A stretch of DNA of 54,451 bases from Deltaproteobacteria bacterium (lineage in GTDB: Bacteria > Myxococcota > Myxococcia > Myxococcales > JAHFDP01). The stretch lies in assembly GCA_023248955.1 (NCBI GenBank), contig JAHFDP010000020.1, positions 1 to 54,451 on the forward strand, read 5' to 3'. How positions within the stretch are numbered: position 1 is the stretch's first letter; each line of letters opens with the position of its first letter. Of the stretch, positions 30,786 to 54,451 are shown piece after piece. Under the pieces are notes generated by a model. It was not told where the DNA came from. It worked only from the letters and a program-made list of their open reading frames with translations, and did not search any database. The position numbers were made by a program, and so were the translations under genes.

Positions 30786-32107
30786 ACGCGGGCGACGCGG
30801 CGATTGAGATTAAGCGGCTCTCGCGCGAGCGCGGGTTTCTGCTCGTCGGAATTGCTCGTGCTGAAAAATTACCGTCCGCACCGCTCGAACGTTGGCTTGC
30901 ACAAGGGATGCACGCCTCCATGCGTTGGATGGAATCGCGCGTCGATGAGCGACTCGATCCGACGCGCTATTTGCGCGGCGCGCGCTCGGTGGTGGCGGTG
31001 GCGGTGAGTTACGCGCATCCCGATTCGAATCCGGAATCTACTGAGCCGGAAATCCACAGTTGCCGTGGAACCGAGACGGTCAAGCGTGGCCCTTCTGCGA
31101 GGCGCGCAGGAGGGGACTCCCCCGTTACCGGGGGAGATGTCGCGCAGCGACAGAGGGGGGCCGCTTGCGGCGAGCAAGCCCCCGGAAGCGCACTTTTCGG
31201 TGCGCTGAGGAGGCACCGCACGAGCCCGCTATGTGATCGAGCGCTTCCAGCGCCACCAATCGGGCCGGCCGCGCTTCCAACATGCGCGGCAAGCACTGAA
31301 GCAGCCGGGCCGCGCTCGGCCGGCGTAGGTAACGGCAATTGTGGTTTTCCGGCTGAGCTCAACGTCGCGCGTTATGCGCGTGGACGCGACTACCACAACG
31401 TGATTTTGAAACGATTGCGCAAGCTACGGGTCGATTGCGAACGCGCGGTCGGCGGCCACTGGCGCACCAGCGTGGACACAGCGCCGGTCATGGAAAAAGC
31501 TTGGGCCGAGCGCGCGGGACTCGGATGGATCGGAAAGAACGGATGCCTCATCCATCCCGAATGCGGATCGCTGCTGCTGCTCGGAACGCTTATCACCGAC
31601 GTCGAGCTCGCCGCTGACAAGCCGGGCGTCAACCGCTGTGGCAGTTGTCGTCTCTGCATCGATGCTTGTCCCACAGCCGCGATTGTCGAGCCCGGTGTTG
31701 TCGATGCGCGGCGATGCTTGTCGTTCCACACCATCGAATCGCGCGCGGCGATTCCCTTGCCGATCGCGCGCGCCGCCGAAGGGCGTGTCTTCGGTTGTGA
31801 TACATGTCAAGACGTGTGTCCGTGGAACCGATCACCGGAGGGCGATCCCGATGCCGCGCTCGCGCCGCGCCCGGCGCAGTCGGCGTTGAATGTGGAGGAT
31901 GTGCTGGCACTGGATGCGGAGTCATTCACCGCGCGTTATATCGGCACCCCGCTGATGCGTGCAGGTCGCAACGGACTGGTGCGGGCGGCATTGGCCGTGG
32001 CGGCGCGACCGTTGTCGGAGAAAGCGCGCGTGCTCGCGGAGCAGCTCGCCGAGAATGATCCCTCCGAAGTTATTCGCGCACACGCGCGTGAGGCACTCGG
32101 CGCGTGA
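30782..32107 (+). CDS. queG: Epoxyqueuosine reductase QueG carrying an in-frame ~105-aa insertion derived from a MITE
   Basis: QueG blocks 'YAHPD', 'ARYARGRDYHNVILKRL', 'GLGWIGKNGCLIHPECGSLLLLGTLITD', 'CGSCRLCIDACPTAAI', 'CDTCQDVCPWN'. The repeat element lies between 'YAHPDSNPES' and 'ARYARGRDYH', and the ORF stays open through it. Confidence 0.75.
   Translation: MNAGDAAIEIKRLSRERGFLLVGIARAEKLPSAPLERWLAQGMHASMRWMESRVDERLDPTRYLRGARSVVAVAVSYAHPDSNPESTEPEIHSCRGTETVKRGPSARRAGGDSPVTGGDVAQRQRGAACGEQAPGSALFGALRRHRTSPLCDRALPAPPIGPAALPTCAASTEAAGPRSAGVGNGNCGFPAELNVARYARGRDYHNVILKRLRKLRVDCERAVGGHWRTSVDTAPVMEKAWAERAGLGWIGKNGCLIHPECGSLLLLGTLITDVELAADKPGVNRCGSCRLCIDACPTAAIVEPGVVDARRCLSFHTIESRAAIPLPIARAAEGRVFGCDTCQDVCPWNRSPEGDPDAALAPRPAQSALNVEDVLALDAESFTARYIGTPLMRAGRNGLVRAALAVAARPLSEKARVLAEQLAENDPSEVIRAHAREALGA
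31041..31357 (+). mobile_element. MITE-like element copy A (~317 bp, ~25-bp terminal inverted repeats CTGAGCCGGAAATCCACAGTTGCCG / CGGCAATTGTGGTTTTCCGGCTGAG), inside queG
   Basis: Near-identical (~90%) to the reverse complement of 45878-46196. Terminal inverted repeats read directly from the sequence. Boundaries +/-2 nt. Confidence 0.75.
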
Positions 32108-45877: not shown

Positions 45878-46196
45878 ACTAAGCCGGAAATCCACAATTG
45901 CCGTTACCTACGACGGCCGATCGCGGCCCGTCTACTTCGGTGCTTGCCGCGCATATTGAAAGCGCGGCCGGCCCGATTGGTGGCGCTGGAAGCGCCCGAT
46001 CACATAGCGGGCTCCTCCGGTGCCTCCTCAGCGCACCGAAAAGTGCGCTTTAAGGGGGCTTGCTCGCCGCAAGCGGCCCCCCTCTGTCGCTGCGCGACAT
46101 CTCCCCCGGTACCGGGGGAGTCCCCTCGTCCGCGCCTCGCAGCCGAGCCACGCTCGGCCGTCTCGGTTCCACTGCAACTGTGGATTTCCGGCTAAG
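45878..46196 (-). mobile_element. MITE-like element copy B (intergenic, inverted relative to copy A)
   Basis: The reverse complement matches 31041-31357 over the full length, including both terminal inverted repeats. Lies between rnhB and hemW. Confidence 0.75.
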
Positions 46197-47473: not shown

Positions 47474-47566
47474 GGAGAGGTGGCCGAGAGGCCGAAGGCG
47501 CTGGTTTGCTAAACCAGTATAGGGCCAAAAGCTCTATCGTGGGTTCGAATCCCACCCTCTCCGCCA
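47474..47566 (+). tRNA. tRNA-Ser (anticodon GCU), long variable arm
   Basis: GGAGAGG acceptor stem, anticodon loop tTGCTAa, long extra arm, TTCGAATCC T-loop, 3' CCA encoded. Confidence 0.85.
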
Positions 47567-47575
47567 GTACAAAAC

Positions 47576-47652
47576 GGACCTTTAGCTCAGTTGGATAGAG
47601 CGTCGGACTACGAATCCGAAGGCCGCAGGTTCGAATCCTGCAAGGTCCGCCA
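47576..47652 (+). tRNA. tRNA-Arg (anticodon ACG)
   Basis: GGACCTT acceptor, D-arm AGCTCAGTTGGATAGAGC, anticodon loop CTACGAA, GGTTCGAATCC T-arm, CCA. Confidence 0.9.
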
Positions 47653-47699
47653 TTTCAATCCCCGACAACGATTGCCGATTTCCGAGGGCACTGTTCGCC

Positions 47700-47905
47700 A
47701 ACTGGACGGGGATCCCAGTCGTCGGTGACACAGCGGTGCTATGGCGCGCAAGTTTGCCGGTGGCCGGAAGCGTGTTGACGGCTGCGCGAAGGTCCTCCAC
47801 GTCGAGGTGCCCGTAGGTCGACGTGGTGGTGCGCATGTCCGCGTGACGAAGGATTCGCTGGACGTAGTGGGGATTGGTTCCGTTGCGCTGATAGACGCTC
47901 GCCAT
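47700..47905 (-). pseudogene. Tyrosine-integrase C-terminal remnant
   Basis: 'VYQRNGTNPHYVQRILRHADMRTTTSTYGHLDVEDLRAAV' carries the R..H..Y catalytic tail only. A TAG stop and the Xis gene lie immediately upstream. The rest of the ORF is antisense tRNA read-through. Confidence 0.6.
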
Positions 47906-47911
47906 GTCGAC

Positions 47912-48142
47912 CTATCTTACCACTGCGGAAAGTGGCGCCAGGCTTGGCTGCCATTCGCCACGAACATAGGCGCGGATGGCGGCGGGCTCGAAGCGCAGCA
48001 TCGCGCCGACCTTGAAGCAGGGAAGAATTCCGGCCTCGGCGCGCTGGTAGACCCAAGAGCGCGAGCAGTTGAGAAAAGCAGCGACCGCGGCAACGGTCCA
48101 AAGCGTTTCATCGGACTGCGGGACAGACGGAATGACGCTCAT
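47912..48142 (-). CDS. AlpA/excisionase-type helix-turn-helix protein
   Basis: 'WTVAAVAAFLNCSRSWVYQRAEAGILPCFKVGAMLRFEPAAIRAYV' fits the Xis/AlpA pattern (LT..E.A..L.VS..T.Y.....G.LP..K.G...RF...). Confidence 0.6.
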   Translation of the reverse strand: MSVIPSVPQSDETLWTVAAVAAFLNCSRSWVYQRAEAGILPCFKVGAMLRFEPAAIRAYVRGEWQPSLAPLSAVVR

Positions 48143-49341
48143 GCAAGCCTCCGGAGGCCCTTGCGGGCGAGTAGATCGACGAAAAACGTGCGCTCTGTTT
48201 CAGAGGGATAGGCGGGAACTGGGAGTCCCCTTTCGCGAGCGTCCGCGCGAATGTCTTTCAACCTGTCGTAGATGCCGGCGGAGAATTTCAGAGCGCGAAT
48301 GGCCTCATCGTCGGTGAGAAAACCGGTCCGTTCTTGCACGACGACAGGTGTGCTCGCGGGTTTGGCCACCGCATTTCGGAGGCCAAGGAAGCCGGAAAAA
48401 ATCGCTGGTGCTTCCTCGAACGTCATCGCGTGAGCACGGAGATCGAACCGCGACGAAAACTCGCTCGCCTGCCCGTCTTCCTTGCGCCACTCTTCGATGG
48501 TGCGCCGCACCGAATCCCGGCGTGCCGCCGTGGGAACGGTGAAGACAAGTTCGCCCGGAAAGCCATCGGGAAACGCCTGCTGATAGAAGGTCGTTCGCGT
48601 CGACCCGTCCGCGTAGCTTCTGTAGAATTCCGAGTAGCGACGCAATTTCGAAAGCGTCGAGCCAGATTTTTCGTCGGCGTTTGAAAGCGAGTGACCGCCC
48701 ATTTCGCACTCGATGAACCAGCGTCGGCGGACAGGCGCGCTCTCCAAAATGGCATCGGGTTCGATGCGCTTGTTCTGAACGGCGCCAAGTTTGCGGTCGT
48801 ATTGTTTCCACGGAAGACGAGACGACTCTGACGTCGTCCAACGAAAAGATTGGTGCACGGGCGCCGCATCGGTTTTTCCATCGCCGCCGCGCGCCGCAGT
48901 TGCCAGCGCGACGTACAAATCGCTCAGCGCGATCGCATGCTCGAGCAGTTGGTACCCAACATCGTCGGACGGAATTTTCACGTCGCGCCCGAGGACCCGG
49001 GAGGCCGCTTCGTATCCCATCTCCGCCAACCGCCAGACCGCGAGGGGCGTGCCGTAATAGGTGCGATATTTCAGGGCCGCCACGAACGGTCCACGGGCGG
49101 GCGGCACCGACAAAACTTCGAGCCGCCGCCGGACTACGCGATCGGAACGGCATGGAAAGACGAGGCGGGCGATTTGGCTGGAGGTCAGGTAACGCGCCAC
49201 GGCGAGGTGCCCCAACAGGACCAGATCTCGTTTTGTAATTCTCGACGCCTTTTTCGCTCTCTCCTTTGACGCTTCTATCGCTTCACTCGGCGCCGCCCAC
49301 ACTTCTCCGTTGACCCTTGTTCCGTCCTCGTCCTTCGACAT
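48139..49341 (-). CDS. Replication-relaxation (Replic_Relax-like) family protein
   Basis: N-terminal winged-HTH 'LTSSQIARLVFP.RSDRVVRRRLEVL' typical of the family. Long purine-rich leader with AAGGAGGA SD. Confidence 0.5.
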   Translation of the reverse strand: MSKDEDGTRVNGEVWAAPSEAIEASKERAKKASRITKRDLVLLGHLAVARYLTSSQIARLVFPCRSDRVVRRRLEVLSVPPARGPFVAALKYRTYYGTPLAVWRLAEMGYEAASRVLGRDVKIPSDDVGYQLLEHAIALSDLYVALATAARGGDGKTDAAPVHQSFRWTTSESSRLPWKQYDRKLGAVQNKRIEPDAILESAPVRRRWFIECEMGGHSLSNADEKSGSTLSKLRRYSEFYRSYADGSTRTTFYQQAFPDGFPGELVFTVPTAARRDSVRRTIEEWRKEDGQASEFSSRFDLRAHAMTFEEAPAIFSGFLGLRNAVAKPASTPVVVQERTGFLTDDEAIRALKFSAGIYDRLKDIRADARERGLPVPAYPSETERTFFVDLLARKGLRRLA

Positions 49342-49594
49342 AGCCGCTCCTCCTTTCCGTCGGACTCCGCTCCAGCTAGTTCGCCTCGCCCCCTACGATT
49401 CGCCTCCGTCCTCGTTTTCTCGGCTCTTGCTCTTCCGTTCTTCTTGTCTCTTTCAACCCCACTGAAACCACATCATATAATTTTCATTTGTAATCTAATT
49501 CAATTCTACTTCAAGTCAATATTGAATCTTGAGCACTCCCGTCAACCACCTCCAACCAGGTCCCATCTCTTCAATCCAAACCCTGCCTTGGGAT

Positions 49595-49650
49595 CATTTA
49601 CCCCTGACCCCTCTCTCGTCGTTGGGAGAGAGGGGTCAGGGGTAAATGAG
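49595..49650. promoter_or_regulatory. Perfect palindrome with 20-bp arms (TTACCCCTGACCCCTCTCTC-n8-GAGAGAGGGGTCAGGGGTAA) in divergent AT-rich intergenic region
   Basis: Read directly from the sequence. Lies between the divergently oriented Replic_Relax and metalloprotease genes, next to a ~100-bp AT-rich stretch. Confidence 0.5.
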
Positions 49651-49989
49651 ACCGACGAAGTGCGCAGCGGCTACAGTCGACGAAGGACCTGGTTGCCAGC
49701 GGAGAGCGAGGTTTGCGCGCGGGAGATTGATCCGCCGAAGGCAATCGGACCTGTCCGGCCGCCTATTCCAGTGATCCGAAGAATCTAACGGATATGTAAA
49801 CGGATATTTGTAACGCTGACTTCGGATCACCCAGCGACAGCGTTGACGCTGGAAATTTTGGAATGGCGAACAACAAAACTCGGCGAGCTTATTCTTCTCG
49901 GCCTGTTTTCCTCGACGTACGAGATACGACAGTGGGTCCGTTTGAAACCACACCGACCATCCACCCTCGCCAAAAAGCAAGCGGCCGCC

Positions 49990-50150
49990 TGTGTTACCAC
50001 CCGCTTCAGTAAATGGGCCGGTCCTCCCTCGCTTTCCTTCTGCCTTTGGTATTCGCCGCCTCGAGAGCCGGCGAATCGCGAGCCGCGGCCCGCTTCGGTG
50101 AACACCCCGGCCAGCCAAAACGTGGCCGAGCGCCTCCGAGTGATCTACTG
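49990..50150. repeat. ~160-bp direct repeat (copy 1); copy 2 at 54297-54451
   Basis: About 90% identical. Covers the upstream region, start codon and signal-peptide coding region of two paralogous genes. Confidence 0.75.
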
Positions 50151-50993
50151 GTCCGAGATGATTTTGCGTATTCGGGTCGAGCCGAACATCGATTCCGGAC
50201 GAAGCCGATCACCAATTCCGACGCATTTTTGCTCCGAAGCAAATCGAGCGAAGGTAGCGAACTCCAGAAACCAATCCGCGTCATCCCGACGCGAGAGCGG
50301 CGCGAGAAGATAAAGCGGGGCTCCAACGCGCCTCCGCCGCCACCCAGCGGCGTCGCTGCCCGATCTACGGAGTGGGGCAAACCCGATCCCGCGAGGCTAT
50401 CGCTCACGCGGAAGATGGTTGCCGCCCGAGGAACCGCCGACCACAAGGACGCTGAGTTGGTGGCGCACGAGATCGCGCGATTTCCTGAACCGATCCTTCA
50501 ACGATTGGCCGCACAGGGAACGCGGGTAATTGCGGTCCGCGACTCGACCACTGAGTATCATACGCATTTACGCGGAGTTCGCCCTCGCGGATGGCCACCG
50601 GACGCTACCTGGGACTCGGTTCCCGGAACCGGGGACCAGCACGCCCTCGTCATTGCGACGAGGGGCCACGGAACCCCGGTCGGAGCACACACTCCCCATT
50701 TCGGAGATGGCCACGGAAGCTTCTCGATGCCTTTGCATGAGACGCTTCACTCGATCGATCGTGGGAACGGAAGCAAGTTTTCGCATGACGAAGGTTTCGC
50801 GGTGGCGAGGACTGCCGACCTAGCGGCTTTGGATTCGTATTTGCAGCAACCAGGAGCGGCCGGATTGGAGGAGACTTTTGCCGAGACTGGAGCACGCTTC
50901 TTTGCCGGCGATCCGACCCTCGAGCACGCGTGCCCCAACCTCTATCGGTTCTGGAAGGAAGATCCGCTTGGGCTGTGGCGAAACGCGAGATGA
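50013..50993 (+). CDS. Secreted HExxH zinc-metallopeptidase-like protein (effector/toxin-like)
   Basis: Signal peptide MGRSSLAFLLPLVFAASRA. 'HETLHSIDRG' (HExxH) with Glu/Asp downstream ('SKFSHDEGF'). Poly-Pro 'NAPPPPPSG'. Confidence 0.5.
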   Translation: MGRSSLAFLLPLVFAASRAGESRAAARFGEHPGQPKRGRAPPSDLLVRDDFAYSGRAEHRFRTKPITNSDAFLLRSKSSEGSELQKPIRVIPTRERREKIKRGSNAPPPPPSGVAARSTEWGKPDPARLSLTRKMVAARGTADHKDAELVAHEIARFPEPILQRLAAQGTRVIAVRDSTTEYHTHLRGVRPRGWPPDATWDSVPGTGDQHALVIATRGHGTPVGAHTPHFGDGHGSFSMPLHETLHSIDRGNGSKFSHDEGFAVARTADLAALDSYLQQPGAAGLEETFAETGARFFAGDPTLEHACPNLYRFWKEDPLGLWRNAR

Positions 50994-50994
50994 C

Positions 50995-51312
50995 ATGCGG
51001 AGAATAGTTGTCACAGTCGCTTTCGTCGGATCGCTTGGATGCAAGACGCCGATCGCGCACACTCCTCGCCCCCCATCAAAATCCGATTTGCCTGTGAACG
51101 AGAGGACCATGGAGAACATTGGAACCGCGACTATGGAAAGCGACGGGACCATTGTCCTTCGACTGCGCGCAGAGGATGGCAACGGAATGGTCGGCCAAGG
51201 CCGAATCACGTACCCGCCGACGCACAAATCCTATCAGGACGTGCTCCGCCATTTAGGCGGATTGAAAAAGGGAGAGGAAAAGCCCGTTCCTCCATGGCCC
51301 GATTTGCCATGA
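50995..51312 (+). CDS. Small lipoprotein (105 aa) abutting the metallopeptidase; possible cognate inhibitor/immunity protein
   Basis: 'MRRIVVTVAFVGSLGC' is an SPII lipobox. Its ATG lies 1 nt after the upstream TGA. Confidence 0.45.
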   Translation: MRRIVVTVAFVGSLGCKTPIAHTPRPPSKSDLPVNERTMENIGTATMESDGTIVLRLRAEDGNGMVGQGRITYPPTHKSYQDVLRHLGGLKKGEEKPVPPWPDLP

Positions 51313-51502
51313 GCCACCGGATTCGCCAGCCGAGAGGAGGTCGACCGGCACGTGTCCGCGACCTTCTCGGCCGGTTTCGCAGCGGGCACGCTCGTGAAGC
51401 CGGATGGCTCTCAGCTCCCATTTCCGCGTCCGATGGTCAGGACTTCGGCTGGCTCGGGTAGGTGCTGGCCTCATCGATGTTCGGCCTTCCGTCTCGATGC
51501 AA

Positions 51503-51790
51503 CTACGCTGGATCGAAATGCAGCTTCACGTTCACCGAATCTAAAACGGATAAGAACGTGTCCAGTCGCGGATTTCCATTCTTGGACAGCGCCTTGTAGA
51601 GGCTCTCCCGACCGCGCGCCGCGCGCTTGGCGACCTGCGCCACGCCCCTGGCCCGCGCGATGTCCCGCAGCGCCAAGAGCAATTCCGATTTGCCTTCCGC
51701 GAAGGCCGCGGTGAGGTACTCCGCGGCGAATTCCGGATCGCCAAGTCGTGCGTCGAGTCCCTCGGTGTACGCTTTGACTTTCCGTTTCAT
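51503..51790 (-). CDS. HigA/TIGR02684-type addiction-module antidote (HTH) protein
   Basis: 'DPEFAAEYLTAAFAEGKSELLLALRDIARARGVAQVAKRAARGRESLYKALSKNGNPRLDTFLSVLDSVNVKL'. Confidence 0.7.
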   Translation of the reverse strand: MKRKVKAYTEGLDARLGDPEFAAEYLTAAFAEGKSELLLALRDIARARGVAQVAKRAARGRESLYKALSKNGNPRLDTFLSVLDSVNVKLHFDPA

Positions 51791-52149
51791 CATTCGCTCC
51801 CTTGGTATTCGATCCAATATTCTTTCGCCCGCCTGATATCGGCCGCCTGGGATTTCTTGCTACCGCCAGCGAGTAGGACAACCAGCCGCTCTCCATCGTG
51901 CGCGAAATAGATCCGGTACCCAGGTCCGTGGTCTACCCGCAGTTCGTGAACGCCTCCGCCGACCGGCTTGGCATCGCCAAAATTTCCCGAACGAACCCGC
52001 AGAAGCCTTGCGTCGATGCGCGCTCGAGTCTTCGTGTCCTTCAACCCCATCAGCCAAGCGCGAAACGGGACCTTTCCGTTGGTGTCGACGAATTCGACAA
52101 GTTCTCGTTCGGTGATCACGTTCAAGTTGTATCCAAAAAGATACAACAC
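51790..52149 (-). CDS. RelE/ParE-superfamily (TIGR02683 'addiction module killer') toxin
   Basis: 'FRAWLMGLKDTKTRARIDARLLRVRSGNFGDAKPVGGGVHELRVDHGPGYRIYFAHDGERLVVLLAGGSKKSQ..DIRRAKE'. True start probably internal. Confidence 0.7.
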   Translation of the reverse strand: MLYLFGYNLNVITERELVEFVDTNGKVPFRAWLMGLKDTKTRARIDARLLRVRSGNFGDAKPVGGGVHELRVDHGPGYRIYFAHDGERLVVLLAGGSKKSQAADIRRAKEYWIEYQGSE

Positions 52150-52434
52150 GTCAAGCGTTTTGCTGTCTTGCTTTGGGGGCTATACGCGGTGCGTTTTTCA
52201 TCGGCAATGCTGCCGGAGTCGGCGAGAGCAACCCCGAATCGAATTCGACGCCCGCACGTGTTGTCAGCTCGCGTGTTCGCACGGTCCGTACACCGTCGCC
52301 GCCGGCACCCCAAGCCACGACGCCATGGTGAGCCTGTCGCGCGCGCGCCATTGATTGAGATGATCAAGACCAGGGGCGGCGGCTCGCTGGCTGCCGCACT
52401 GGCGATTGCGCCCACACTGCGGCATGATGTCGAC

Positions 52435-52713
52435 ATGACTCGTCCAAGCGTTGTCATCGCCTGGAACCGTCGCGCCAACGCCTACGTCGCTCGAATGACG
52501 ACGCGCGCCGGAGAGCTCGCACGTGGGGCGACGCTGTCGGAGACCGCTCGCAAGCTTGCCGAAGCTATCGACCCGGCGGTCCAGCTTGATGCGGTCTTTC
52601 GCAAGGTCGCGGCGTTCCAGAAGGCGCACAAGGTCAAGCCGCTCTCGATGAAGGAGATCGACGCGGAGATCAAGATTTACCGCGAAGAGCGCGCTCGGCG
52701 CCGCCGCGCGTGA
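52435..52713 (+). CDS. HicB-like (UPF0150 fold) antitoxin partner of the PIN toxin
   Basis: 'PSVVIAWNRRANAYVARMTTRAGELARGATLSETARKLAEAI'. Stop overlaps the vapC start. Alternative start at 52360. Confidence 0.45.
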   Translation: MTRPSVVIAWNRRANAYVARMTTRAGELARGATLSETARKLAEAIDPAVQLDAVFRKVAAFQKAHKVKPLSMKEIDAEIKIYREERARRRRA

Positions 52714-53129
52714 GGCTCGTTTTCGACACCAACGTTCTCGTGTCGGCGCTCATCACACCGAAGGGGACAGCGCGCCGATCAATCGACGCCGCTATCCACT
52801 CAACGGCCATCGTTCTCTACGATGAGCGAATTCTCCTCGAGTACGCGGAAGTCACGACCCGTGCGAAGTTTCGCGGAAAGTATCCGCCGAATGCACCGCG
52901 CGAACTCCTGCTCGCGTTGCTGGCACGAAGCGAGTCAGTTGTCGGATCGCCAAGCGACCTGGTATTGCCGGATCCAACGGACGCGCCGTTCCTGGAAGTT
53001 GCAATTGCTGGCCAGGCCGACGCAATCGTCACGGGAAACGCCAAGCATTATCCGGCCAGCTCGGGGGTTCCCATTTTCTCGCCGCAGGACCTCGTGCGGC
53101 GTCTGCACCAACAGCGTCCAGATCGCTGA
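52710..53129 (+). CDS. vapC: PIN-domain toxin (VapC-like)
   Basis: 'MRLVFDTNVLVSALI', acidic residues in 'YDERIL', and 'AIVTGNAKHY'. Confidence 0.8.
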   Translation: MRLVFDTNVLVSALITPKGTARRSIDAAIHSTAIVLYDERILLEYAEVTTRAKFRGKYPPNAPRELLLALLARSESVVGSPSDLVLPDPTDAPFLEVAIAGQADAIVTGNAKHYPASSGVPIFSPQDLVRRLHQQRPDR

Positions 53130-53144
53130 GTGACGGTTATTGGC

Positions 53145-53313
53145 TCACCTGCGCCGAACAAATTCCGACAGCGCACCCGGCTCAACCCGAATCGAATTCG
53201 ACACCCGCACGTGCTTGAGCTCACCTCGCTCGCACAGTCCGTACACCATCGCCGTCGACACCCCAATCCACGCCGCCACCTCGCGTACATTTAATAGACG
53301 CGAACCAAAATTC
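53145..53313 (-). CDS. Second AlpA-type HTH gene (short)
   Basis: Hand translation of the minus strand: 'REVAAWIGVSTAMVYGLCERGELKHVRVSNSIRVEPGALSEFVRRR*'. A degraded copy of the same ~100-bp segment lies at 52225-52325. Start uncertain. Confidence 0.4.
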
Positions 53314-53443
53314 GGTGACACAGCGGTGCTATGAAATATGAAAACCGGCGCTAACGGTCCACTGAATGTAATTTAGCGGAATCGGTTTCCGCAATACTTC
53401 CCATAGCTTGCGAAGCCTCGTCACTCGCTGCGAATCCATTTCC

Positions 53444-53515
53444 CAGACCTACGAATCCGAAGGCCGCAGGTTCGAATCCTGCAAGGTCCGCCATTTTAAT
53501 CCCCGACAACGATTG
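53444..53515 (+). repeat. Partial tRNA-Arg 3' half plus flank (attR-like direct repeat)
   Basis: 'CTACGAATCCGAAGGCCGCAGGTTCGAATCCTGCAAGGTCCGCCA' plus 'TTTtAATCCCCGACAACGATTGCCGA' duplicates 47608-47679. Confidence 0.75.
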
Positions 53516-54245
53516 CCGAGCGTAATTTCTCTACCATCCACGGCCAGCCCACGCCTTCGACAAGACGGTATGGAAAAGCATGTCCGATTCCGAGAATCTC
53601 TCGAAGTTCAACTTCGCTTTCCGGTTGACCAGCAACAAAGGCGCGAACGTGTTCGATGGGAAAGAGTCGATCGTCGATCCCGTGAACAAAAAGCGTTGGC
53701 ACGTGGGCTAGCCGAACGTTGCACCGCCATGGTGCGGCAGCGAATGCAACGATGCCAAGAATGCGCTTAGCAAGGGTGTCGCCCAATTCCCAGGCCGTGT
53801 TGGCTCCCGCCGAGAGACCGACGACAACGACCGGTTGTCCGACAAGGCGACCCATGGCTTGCTCTACGACCTCGTTTTTTGTCGCCTCGGTCCAAGTGGG
53901 GCTGACGAGGTGAATCGCGTGTGCTTGGAGAAGCTCATAGAAGACCGCGGCAAACCGGCGGCCAGTGTCCTGAGCGCCATGCAAAGCAAGCACCCCGACC
54001 TGCGCAACGCCCACCTTTGGCCGCAATCCCAGACCGTCCGCGCCGATCGGTTCAACCTCGTAGTGCGGCTCGAGCGCCGCGAGCAGCCGCAACGAAAGAC
54101 GTTCGTGCAAGTCCAAGAGGAGGTTGGGCGATGACTGTACTGGTTCCTGCAAGCCGAGATATTTGCAAAGGTCGCTGGCGTTCGGCGGCAGTGGTCCTCC
54201 GAGACCAAAGCGCTCCAGAATTGTCGCGGCATCGAGGATGTCCAT
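53496..54245 (-). CDS. Alpha/beta-hydrolase fold protein (esterase/lipase-like)
   Basis: Nucleophile elbow 'VVVGLSAGAN' and 'LFVHGIDDRLFP'. Start set at the MDILDA ATG. Confidence 0.65.
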   Translation of the reverse strand: MDILDAATILERFGLGGPLPPNASDLCKYLGLQEPVQSSPNLLLDLHERLSLRLLAALEPHYEVEPIGADGLGLRPKVGVAQVGVLALHGAQDTGRRFAAVFYELLQAHAIHLVSPTWTEATKNEVVEQAMGRLVGQPVVVVGLSAGANTAWELGDTLAKRILGIVAFAAAPWRCNVRLAHVPTLFVHGIDDRLFPIEHVRAFVAGQPESEVELREILGIGHAFPYRLVEGVGWPWMVEKLRSAIVVGD

Positions 54246-54330
54246 AGTCGGCGGGGCAGCGCGAAGGAGTATAGCCCGCGGATGCATCGATCGCGCCTGT
54301 GTTACCACCCCGCTTCAGTAAATGGGCCGG

Positions 54331-54451
54331 TCCTCCGTCGCATTCCTTCTGCCTTTGGTATTCGCCGCCTCGAGAGCCGGCGAATCGCGAGCCGCGGCCC
54401 GCTTCGGTGACCCCCCCGGCCAGCCAAAACGTAGACGAGCGCCTCCGAGCC
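54331..54451 (+). CDS. Paralog of the HExxH metallopeptidase-like gene, 3'-truncated by window end
   Basis: 'MGRSSVAFLLPLVFAASRAGESRAAARFGDPPGQPK...' is the same signal peptide as the 50013 gene, and lies within the direct repeat. Confidence 0.5.

Follow-up and report, generated by a model that had tools for sequence, protein, structure and literature searches.

A PPEP-like metallopeptidase gene and its linked small lipoprotein gene in a decayed tRNA island: a candidate protease toxin-inhibitor cassette

Why should the gene for a small lipoprotein begin a single nucleotide after the stop codon of a secreted metallopeptidase? The question is raised by two neighbouring genes on contig JAHFDP010000020.1 of a Deltaproteobacteria bacterium (Myxococcota; GenBank assembly GCA_023248955.1), the whole of which, 54,451 nt in length, is called the window here. 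A first-pass annotation made from the sequence alone had described the upstream product as a 326-amino-acid (aa) protein with a signal peptide, a poly-proline stretch and a single HETLH motif followed by acidic residues, and all of these were found in the open reading frame (ORF), the acidic residues being E286, E287 and E291. The 105-aa lipoprotein gene was likewise located as described: a single base, C (50994), separates the protease stop codon TGA (50991-50993) from the ATG (50995) of a reading frame with the lipobox LGC. We propose, at a probability of roughly 0.65, that the pair is a protease-toxin and cognate-inhibitor (effector-immunity) cassette, exported by Sec, guarded by the lipoprotein, and lodged in a decayed tRNA-Arg island. 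Coordinates of all features are collected in Table 1.

The first step toward an answer is the identity of the protease. It had been credited with no recognisable domain beyond its HExxH motif, a statement that does not hold, as Pfam PF07737 (ATLF) matches residues 142-315 at 44.5 bits (gathering score 27.4) and spans profile positions 22-191 of 193. The best matches to sequences in the PDB were Pro-Pro endopeptidases (PPEPs), namely PPEP-2 (6fpc, E 1.6e-12), PPEP-3 (9g0j, E 4.1e-11) and PPEP-1/Zmp1 (5a0p and others, ~1e-10), with PPEP matches overall ranging from 1.6e-12 to 1e-9. The alignments cover the blocks PRGW...TWD.VPG, G.GHG...HE..H and EE.FAE and place the main functional elements of PPEP-1 opposite residues of the window protein (Table 1). 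Y276 is likely to be the counterpart of the oxyanion Tyr178 of PPEP-1, within a loop four residues longer. These positions are strongly conserved among 87 homologs: P, R and G of the PRGW motif in all 87 and its W in 86, Y276 in 83, E287 in 86, and the G/G/H/G of the diverting loop in 82-86. The earlier expectation that HExxH should be conserved among homologs was also borne out (85/87). Homolog P0033 shares 47% identity with the window protein over the catalytic domain; its AlphaFold2 (AF2) model (predicted local distance difference test score, pLDDT, 87) was compared with known structures using Foldseek and gave a TM score of 0.75 with both PPEP-2 and PPEP-1 and of 0.25 (E ~2e-5) with anthrax lethal factor (LF). 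The geometry of the diverting loop is known only from this model of a homolog, not from the window protein. The window protease is a lone 195-aa catalytic domain without a protective antigen (PA)-binding domain or any other LF domain, and this single-domain architecture together with the two TM scores ruled out anthrax lethal factor proper.

The compact zincin suspected by the first-pass annotation is therefore of the anthrax-LF/Pro-Pro-endopeptidase family, which was among the candidates it named. The operational PPEP family has been defined by an E value of 1e-25 to PPEP-1/2 (van Leeuwen et al., PMC8610288), a cut-off that the protease misses. With its best E of 1.6e-12, to PPEP-2, and an identity to the PPEPs of ~25%, it is not a member of that operational family; it is a PPEP-like protease of the ATLF/M34 fold that belongs, within Pfam ATLF, to a clade sister to the PPEPs. 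Since the zinc ligands, catalytic base, oxyanion Tyr, S-loop and diverting loop are all kept, the enzyme is predicted to cut x-x-P↓P-x-P sites (the arrow marks the scissile bond), a Pro-Pro specificity we infer from these sequence features. CD1597 of Clostridioides difficile is PPEP-like, yet without Pro-Pro hydrolysis (PMC12828418).

The region ahead of the catalytic domain is of a different character. The protein begins MGRSS-LAFLLPLVFAAS-RA↓GE, which has, read by eye, the look of a Sec signal peptide. Residues 1-125 searched alone returned zero homologs, so that a shared 'constant' trafficking domain is not demonstrable. By our own estimate the chance of 133 open codons in front of the catalytic domain is ~0.016 at 61% GC; the GC content at third codon positions of this extension gives no coding or non-coding signal at that composition. 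Just upstream of the catalytic domain lies PPPPP (residues 109-113, nt 50337-50351), and poly-proline stretches occur at the matching place in homologs P0002, P0003, P0024 and P0042. Speculatively, the stretch could serve as a linker or as a self-processing site.

The start of the small gene can be drawn in two ways. The 105-aa form, called in the Logan assembly (P0352), opens with MRR-IVVTVAFVGS-LGC by our reading by eye and, given this long start, looks like a lipoprotein: its N-terminus is positively charged and is followed by hydrophobic residues and by a lipobox of the form [LVI][ASTVI][GAS]C (L14-G-C16, nt 51034-51042). The alternative ATG at 51109, with GAGAGG upstream, leads to the 67-aa product that NCBI/ENA annotate (P0088). 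The long start is favoured, if not proven, because homologs of 104-105 aa share the signal-plus-lipobox layout and because the 1-nt spacing suggests translational coupling. As the family contains both long forms (with a signal or lipobox) and short forms, dual localisation is conceivable. The core domain (residues 41-105) is 45-70% identical to its 243 close homologs, and its profile matches at least 1416 sequence clusters in a library of 1.84 billion representatives. AF2 returned a confident beta-beta-beta-alpha-beta fold (pLDDT at least 93 over residues 41-100) for which no convincing structural relative was found in the PDB. Scans of both the protease and the small protein with NCBIfam, PADLOC and PHROGs matched nothing, and, judged by Pfam, these three collections, the PDB and such literature as could be searched, the small domain is undescribed. 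It appears in other settings as well: P0208 is a tandem double of the 65-aa domain, in P0266 and P0292 it is fused to WG_beta_rep repeats, and P0221 joins it to a weakly Emfourin-like metalloprotease-inhibitor domain, a fusion that we counted for the toxin logic.

The evidence that ties the two genes together is their linkage in other genomes. Loci were counted on one-genome-per-species contigs, with a clade search built on a six-sequence domain alignment. The small domain is encoded directly downstream of the protease, on the same strand, in 38 of 42 clade-level protease loci, and these 38 span at least eight phyla (Myxococcota, Acidobacteriota, Planctomycetota, Verrucomicrobiota, Actinomycetota, Cyanobacteria, Chloroflexota and Proteobacteria). 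The gene order typical of toxin-immunity or protease-inhibitor pairs, which the first-pass annotation had pointed out, and the co-occurrence of the two genes among homologs, which it had proposed to check, both stand on this count. Gaps between the domain envelopes run from about -145 to +480 nt and are mostly below 100 nt, or the domains are fused. At least 11 natural one-chain fusions of protease and small domain were identified, one of them in the isolate Polymorphobacter arshaanensis. When the look-up was reversed and started from the small protein, an ATLF gene lay immediately upstream in three of four long contigs, and the fourth small gene was an orphan. Two copies of the small gene are present at L003, L006, L016 and L065. 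Tandem and orphan copies are typical of immunity genes, and these therefore fit that role. The clade loci without a partner are L002, L019 and two loci of Zooshikella (L036 and L037). Nine more distant ATLF relatives gave a weak downstream match to the small domain in two cases only (L044 and L049).

The relatives also differ from one another in how the protease would be delivered. The 86 homologs align only to the C-terminal 55-66% of the protease (a few reach 83%), and relatives ~45-50% identical to it carry other N-terminal delivery modules: PAAR in P0002, P0009, P0018, P0020, P0028 and P0035, VgrG in P0032, a peptidoglycan-binding domain (PG_binding) in P0066, P0069 and P0071, a Gly-zipper in P0036, and a Flp/Fap-pilin-like segment in P0003, P0017, P0024, P0034, P0042 and P0054 (PF04964, sub-threshold at E 1e-4 to 6e-3). 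The JGI label for the latter proteins (e.g. at locus L008) is Flp pilin, and their partners are lipoproteins. Judged from these N-termini, delivery in Myxococcota may proceed via a Tad-like apparatus. Type VI secretion system (T6SS) genes accompany the protease in three layouts. VgrG is followed by a PAAR-ATLF fusion and then a 68-80-aa gene at L055-L057 and L065; PAAR and DUF4123 genes precede the effector at L058-L060; and evolved VgrG-ATLF fusions are found in Sphingomonas and Acidobacteriota. Interchangeable trafficking domains ahead of a toxin domain are thus a trait of the family, the window copy having a Sec signal alone. Read from domain order, the varied N-termini and T6SS loci amount to a polymorphic-toxin architecture, and for the family the earlier suggestion of a polymorphic effector holds. 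Literature searches returned no paper linking ATLF or PPEP domains to the T6SS. Two variants were seen among these loci. The 571-aa effector of L058-L060 (P0040, P0044) consists of an N-terminal region of unknown nature, ATLF and a fused partner domain; its ATLF reads HVAHH, with the catalytic Glu replaced, the fused partner keeps the canonical KPVPPWP tail, and the effector may have been inactivated or repurposed. At L002 (681-4835) the PAAR-ATLF ORF extends ~1000 residues further and has no downstream partner gene.

How the small protein might act is suggested by its C-terminus, H-L-G-G-L-x-P-G-E-x-K-P-V-P-P-W-P, the stretch in which the partner is most strongly conserved. In 120 sequences the successive tail positions are K in 120, P in 116, V in 120, P in 120 and P in 119, followed by W in 107 (F in the other 13) and P in 107. 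PPEPs cleave at sites of the type P↓P-x-P, the optimum for PPEP-2 being PLP↓PVP (PMC8610288), and a preference for Pro at P3' is common to the PPEPs (PMC8610288, PMC12828418). P-V-P-P-W-P fits P↓P-x-P exactly, and the tail is therefore proposed to lie in subsites S3-S3' as a substrate mimic, although this placement in the cleft is inferred from sequence rather than shown. The class of tail (PP[WF] or [KR]PF) was also compared with protease alignment columns in 43 pairs, where the columns of highest mutual information were confounded by phylogeny and were not used.

The conserved downstream position, the fusions, the orphan and tandem copies and the T6SS contexts together argue that the small protein is a cognate partner that blocks the protease, to be called an immunity protein when the protease is viewed as a toxin and an inhibitor when it is viewed as an enzyme. 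The cassette we propose would work as follows. The 326-aa protein would be exported by Sec, and its C-terminal 195 residues would act as a zinc endopeptidase of the PPEP branch, with H242, H246 and E287 as predicted ligands, E243 as catalytic base and Y276 as oxyanion tyrosine, cutting proline-rich x-x-P↓P-x-P sites. The small protein, translationally coupled across the 1-nt gap, would be lipid-anchored on the periplasmic side, where it would bind and block the protease and so shield the envelope of the producer, its P-V-P-P-W-P tail perhaps filling S3-S3' in the manner of a substrate. Elsewhere the same catalytic domain and partner would be delivered by the T6SS, as PAAR or VgrG fusions or from loci with a DUF4123 adaptor, and other versions have peptidoglycan-binding or weakly Flp-pilin-like N-termini or are single-chain fusions.

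Several observations weigh against parts of this proposal. No similarity to VgrG, PAAR or DUF4123 was detected throughout the 54-kb window, which is also without any T6SS, PAAR or Tad gene; for this copy an antibacterial role is thus an extrapolation based on its relatives. Whether the partner has a signal peptide differs between lineages, even within T6SS loci. In Sphingomonas and Pyrinomonadaceae the evolved-VgrG toxins are paired with partners that bear a signal peptide or lipoprotein signal, and in Planctomycetes the PAAR toxins are paired with partners that lack one; on these grounds the idea that partner localisation tracks the export route was rejected. In the window itself, a start at codon 39 (the 67-aa form) would drop the lipoprotein signal. 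Conservation is higher in the small domain (45-70% identity) than in the protease (~45-50%), an unusual situation for an immunity protein. As to the tail, [KR]-P-F replaces P-P-W in about one-third of the partners in genome loci, so that strict Pro-Pro mimicry could not be the rule for every partner. Moreover, the strand before the tail is part of the domain's own sheet in both AF2 models and the tail is confidently placed in a monomer model without the protease, so the Pro/Trp motif could be structural and not an arm reaching into the cleft.

Other explanations were weighed as well. The protease could be a secreted housekeeping or nutritional enzyme, serving the breakdown of proline-rich proteins, surface remodelling or predation, with a lipoprotein whose sole task is to shield the cell's own periplasm, in the way of the periplasmic inhibitors of some secreted metalloproteases. 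The plain Sec signal of the window copy, with no T6SS or PAAR module, agrees with such a role, as do the peptidoglycan-binding anchors of some relatives, which are like those of Firmicute PPEPs, the resemblance of the fused protease-inhibitor forms to zymogens, and the role of the characterised PPEPs, which are secreted to remodel surfaces and are not toxins (PMC8610288). We nonetheless consider it unlikely: near relatives with the same partner are PAAR/VgrG fusions in T6SS loci, orphan and tandem partner genes suit immunity better, and the gene sits among toxin-antitoxin modules of the island. A pairing of protease and substrate after the model of PPEP-1/CD2831 or PPEP-2/VMSP, in which the small lipoprotein would be clipped between P99 and P100, draws on the P-V-P-P-W-P sequence at its end. 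Such a cut would remove 3-6 C-terminal residues of the 65-aa domain, to which the logic of adhesin release is inapplicable, and the site is single, not repeated. Fusion of the partner to the protease C-terminus in at least 11 proteins, the K/R-P-F tail of many partners and their occupation of the immunity position in T6SS effector loci make this pairing improbable.

A toxin of the anthrax-lethal-factor type aimed at eukaryotic hosts, next to a functionally unrelated small gene, might be read into the name of the Pfam family and into the presence of ALF-type metallopeptidase domains in PVC-delivered toxins (PMC3482391). With no PA-binding or other LF domain, a fold far closer to the PPEPs than to LF by TM score, conserved PPEP-specific loops and a tightly linked partner gene, we find it scarcely credible. 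The toxin-inhibitor cassette is accordingly the reading we prefer. A bolder version of it is put forward only tentatively, the odds being in our view against it: the 65-aa domain would be a new and widespread class of metalloprotease inhibitors that neutralise PPEP-type enzymes by offering a rigid C-terminal P-x-P-P-W-P mimic to the active-site cleft, and PPEP-like proteases, to date described only as Firmicute enzymes that release adhesins, would be major antibacterial effectors of Gram-negative bacteria (delivered by T6SS, Sec and possibly Tad/Flp) that attack proline-rich envelope or cytoplasmic proteins.

Comparison with known systems helps to place the pair. PPEP-1 (Zmp1/CD2830, C. difficile), PPEP-2 (Paenibacillus alvei) and PPEP-3 (Geobacillus thermodenitrificans) are classified as EC 3.4.24.89, MEROPS M34 and PF07737. 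With them the window protease appears, from alignment and homolog model, to share the fold, the ~190-aa catalytic domain, HExxH, the Glu-Glu tandem, the oxyanion Tyr, an S-loop of the form [K/R]-G-W and a G-x-G-H-x diverting loop, as well as secretion and a functionally linked gene next door. It differs in its low identity, in the loop between Tyr and zinc Glu, which is 4 residues longer, in a neighbour that is a small conserved putative inhibitor and not a large adhesin substrate, and in having relatives fused to T6SS modules. Surveys find PPEPs in Firmicutes only (PMC8610288), whereas the window clade occurs in Gram-negative and other phyla. Tox-ALFMPTase (Zhang et al. 2012, PMC3482391) is likewise an ATLF-family zincin that forms a C-terminal module after varied trafficking domains. 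That survey listed delivery by PVC-SS (Photorhabdus virulence cassette secretion system) or the type II secretion system and Imm-SuFu immunity (PMC3482391); here the routes are T6SS, Sec, peptidoglycan-binding and weakly Flp-like, and the partner is another small domain, without a Pfam family.

The best-characterised analogue of the pair would be the Tpe-Tpi systems, the VgrG2b C-terminal metallopeptidase with PA0261 in Pseudomonas aeruginosa and Tpe1-Tpi1 in Acinetobacter baylyi (Wood et al. 2019, PMC6899460). Their effectors are HExxH proteins delivered by the T6SS, some as evolved VgrG, that act in the periplasm; directly downstream is an immunity gene whose periplasmic, lipoprotein or membrane-anchored product neutralises by binding (PMC6899460). 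The likeness is one of analogy, as both proteins here come from other families, the protease from a different zincin family: VgrG2b was absent from the 19 PDB sequence matches (E up to 10) and from the 50 fold matches listed out of 62 significant ones. The Tpe-Tpi immunity protein is Cys-containing and poorly conserved, unlike the highly conserved, unrelated 65-aa domain, and the window copy is Sec-exported and not T6SS-linked. Emfourin (PF20242) and the periplasmic serralysin inhibitors guard producers of secreted bacterial metalloproteases. They resemble the present case in having a small dedicated inhibitor gene beside the protease gene, and the small protein has no sequence or fold relationship to them.

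Should the proposal be correct, Pro-Pro endopeptidases would extend from a few Firmicute surface-remodelling enzymes to a broad family of antibacterial effectors, and a large unannotated family of small proteins could be named as inhibitors of PPEP-type enzymes. It would also offer a compact, highly conserved inhibitor scaffold for this type of enzyme; PPEP-1 is a virulence factor of C. difficile and a diagnostic target. For the window, two genes labelled 'hypothetical' gain a functional annotation, and an earlier claim of a paralog is corrected, as described below.

Table 1. Positions of the protease, its partner and the surrounding island in the window. Residue roles in PPEP-1 are from PMC12828418; arrows mark cleavage points.
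Feature	Position (nt)	Strand	Basis or remark	PPEP-1 counterpart
Gene for 326-aa secreted PPEP-like (ATLF-fold, MEROPS M34-type) zinc metallopeptidase (copy A)	50013..50993	+	ORF, Pfam ATLF, PDB sequence matches	
Predicted Sec signal peptide, residues 1-19, MGRSSLAFLLPLVFAASRA↓GE	50013..50069	+	judged by eye from sequence	
Orphan, probably disordered linker region, residues 20-130	50070..50402	+	no homologs at N-terminus	
Catalytic domain, residues 131-326	50403..50990	+	PPEP-1/2/3 alignment, homolog conservation, homolog AF2 model	
S-loop P191-R192-G-W194	50583..50594	+	alignment to PPEPs	P-K101-G-W103, S-loop
Diverting loop G231-D-G-H-G235	within catalytic domain	+	alignment to PPEPs	G-K-G-H-D135, diverting loop
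H242-E243-T-L-H246	50736..50750	+	sole HExxH of the chain	H142/E143/H146, zinc ligands and catalytic base
E286-E287	50868..50873	+	in L-E286-E287-T-F-A-E291, downstream of HETLH	E184/E185, Glu tandem with zinc ligand
Gene for 105-aa small lipoprotein, predicted cognate inhibitor/immunity protein	50995..51312	+	ORF, lipobox, linkage	
Conserved 65-aa core, residues 41-105, beta-beta-beta-alpha-beta	51115..51309	+	no Pfam family	
Tail K96-P-V-P-P-W-P102, PPEP-substrate form	51280..51300	+	conservation in 120 homologs	
tRNA-Ser and tRNA-Arg	47474..47652		tRNA-Arg at 47576..47652	
Integrase, C-terminal remnant	47582..47905	-	by eye, no Pfam match; overlaps tRNA	
Left 71-nt direct repeat, island boundary	47608..47678		3' part of tRNA-Arg plus 26 nt	
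Right 71-nt direct repeat, island boundary	53449..53519		99% identical to left copy	
Copy B, 5' protease-gene fragment	54294..54451	+	~19 nt upstream plus ~first 46 codons	

The protease gene (copy A) lies between two 71-nt direct repeats and thus inside a tRNA island, as the first-pass annotation had placed it. The island (5.9 kb, 47576-53519) is decayed, its integrase reduced to a remnant. Besides the protease and partner pair it holds two HTH_17 genes (excisionase-like), one Replic_Relax gene, a Gp49/antidote (HigBA-like) toxin-antitoxin pair and a PIN toxin with a small ORF upstream. The further suggestion that the protease family is mobile polymorphic cargo finds weak support in an island of this state, and the relatives are found mostly in T6SS or ordinary chromosomal contexts, not in tRNA islands. 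Short repeats were also noted within the island, at 52233-52260 and 53186-53213 and at 47722-47743 and 53312-53333.

A second copy of the 5' end of the gene (copy B) follows an alpha/beta-hydrolase gene and is not part of the island. Its existence was correctly reported, its identity to copy A underestimated: 54294-54449 is 95-96% identical to 49986-50140 over ~156 nt, not ~90%. The window is a whole contig and ends where this repeat ends, and copy B had been taken to open a paralogous gene running off it, a member of a duplicated family. An independent ENA assembly (L061) contains the same locus, 99.98% identical over 14,441 nt, and reads past the window end into sequence unrelated to copy A. 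The frame of copy B stops there after 47 codons (with a run of C9) or after 87 codons if the C7 run of the window is used. A tblastn search with the 326-aa protein at copy B in L061 aligned residues 1-32 only, weakly to 49, and neither an ATLF domain nor a protease gene lies behind copy B in that assembly. Provided that L061 is not a chimera joined at the repeat, copy B represents a fragment of the gene's 5' part rather than a paralog. At 14301-17300 of L061, a HicB-like and helix-turn-helix gene and a HicA-like gene were recognised by eye on the minus strand, with proteins of 483 aa and 209 aa without a Pfam family further on.

Elsewhere in the window, an element of ~315 nt resembling a miniature inverted-repeat transposable element is present in two copies of opposite orientation, at 31044-31357 (+) and 45879-46193 (-), that are 92% identical. 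It has no match in Rfam. The element is bounded by terminal inverted repeats of ~20 nt (AGCCGGAAATCCACAGTTGC ... GCAATTGTGGnTTTCCGGCT) and contains several internal GC-rich hairpins.

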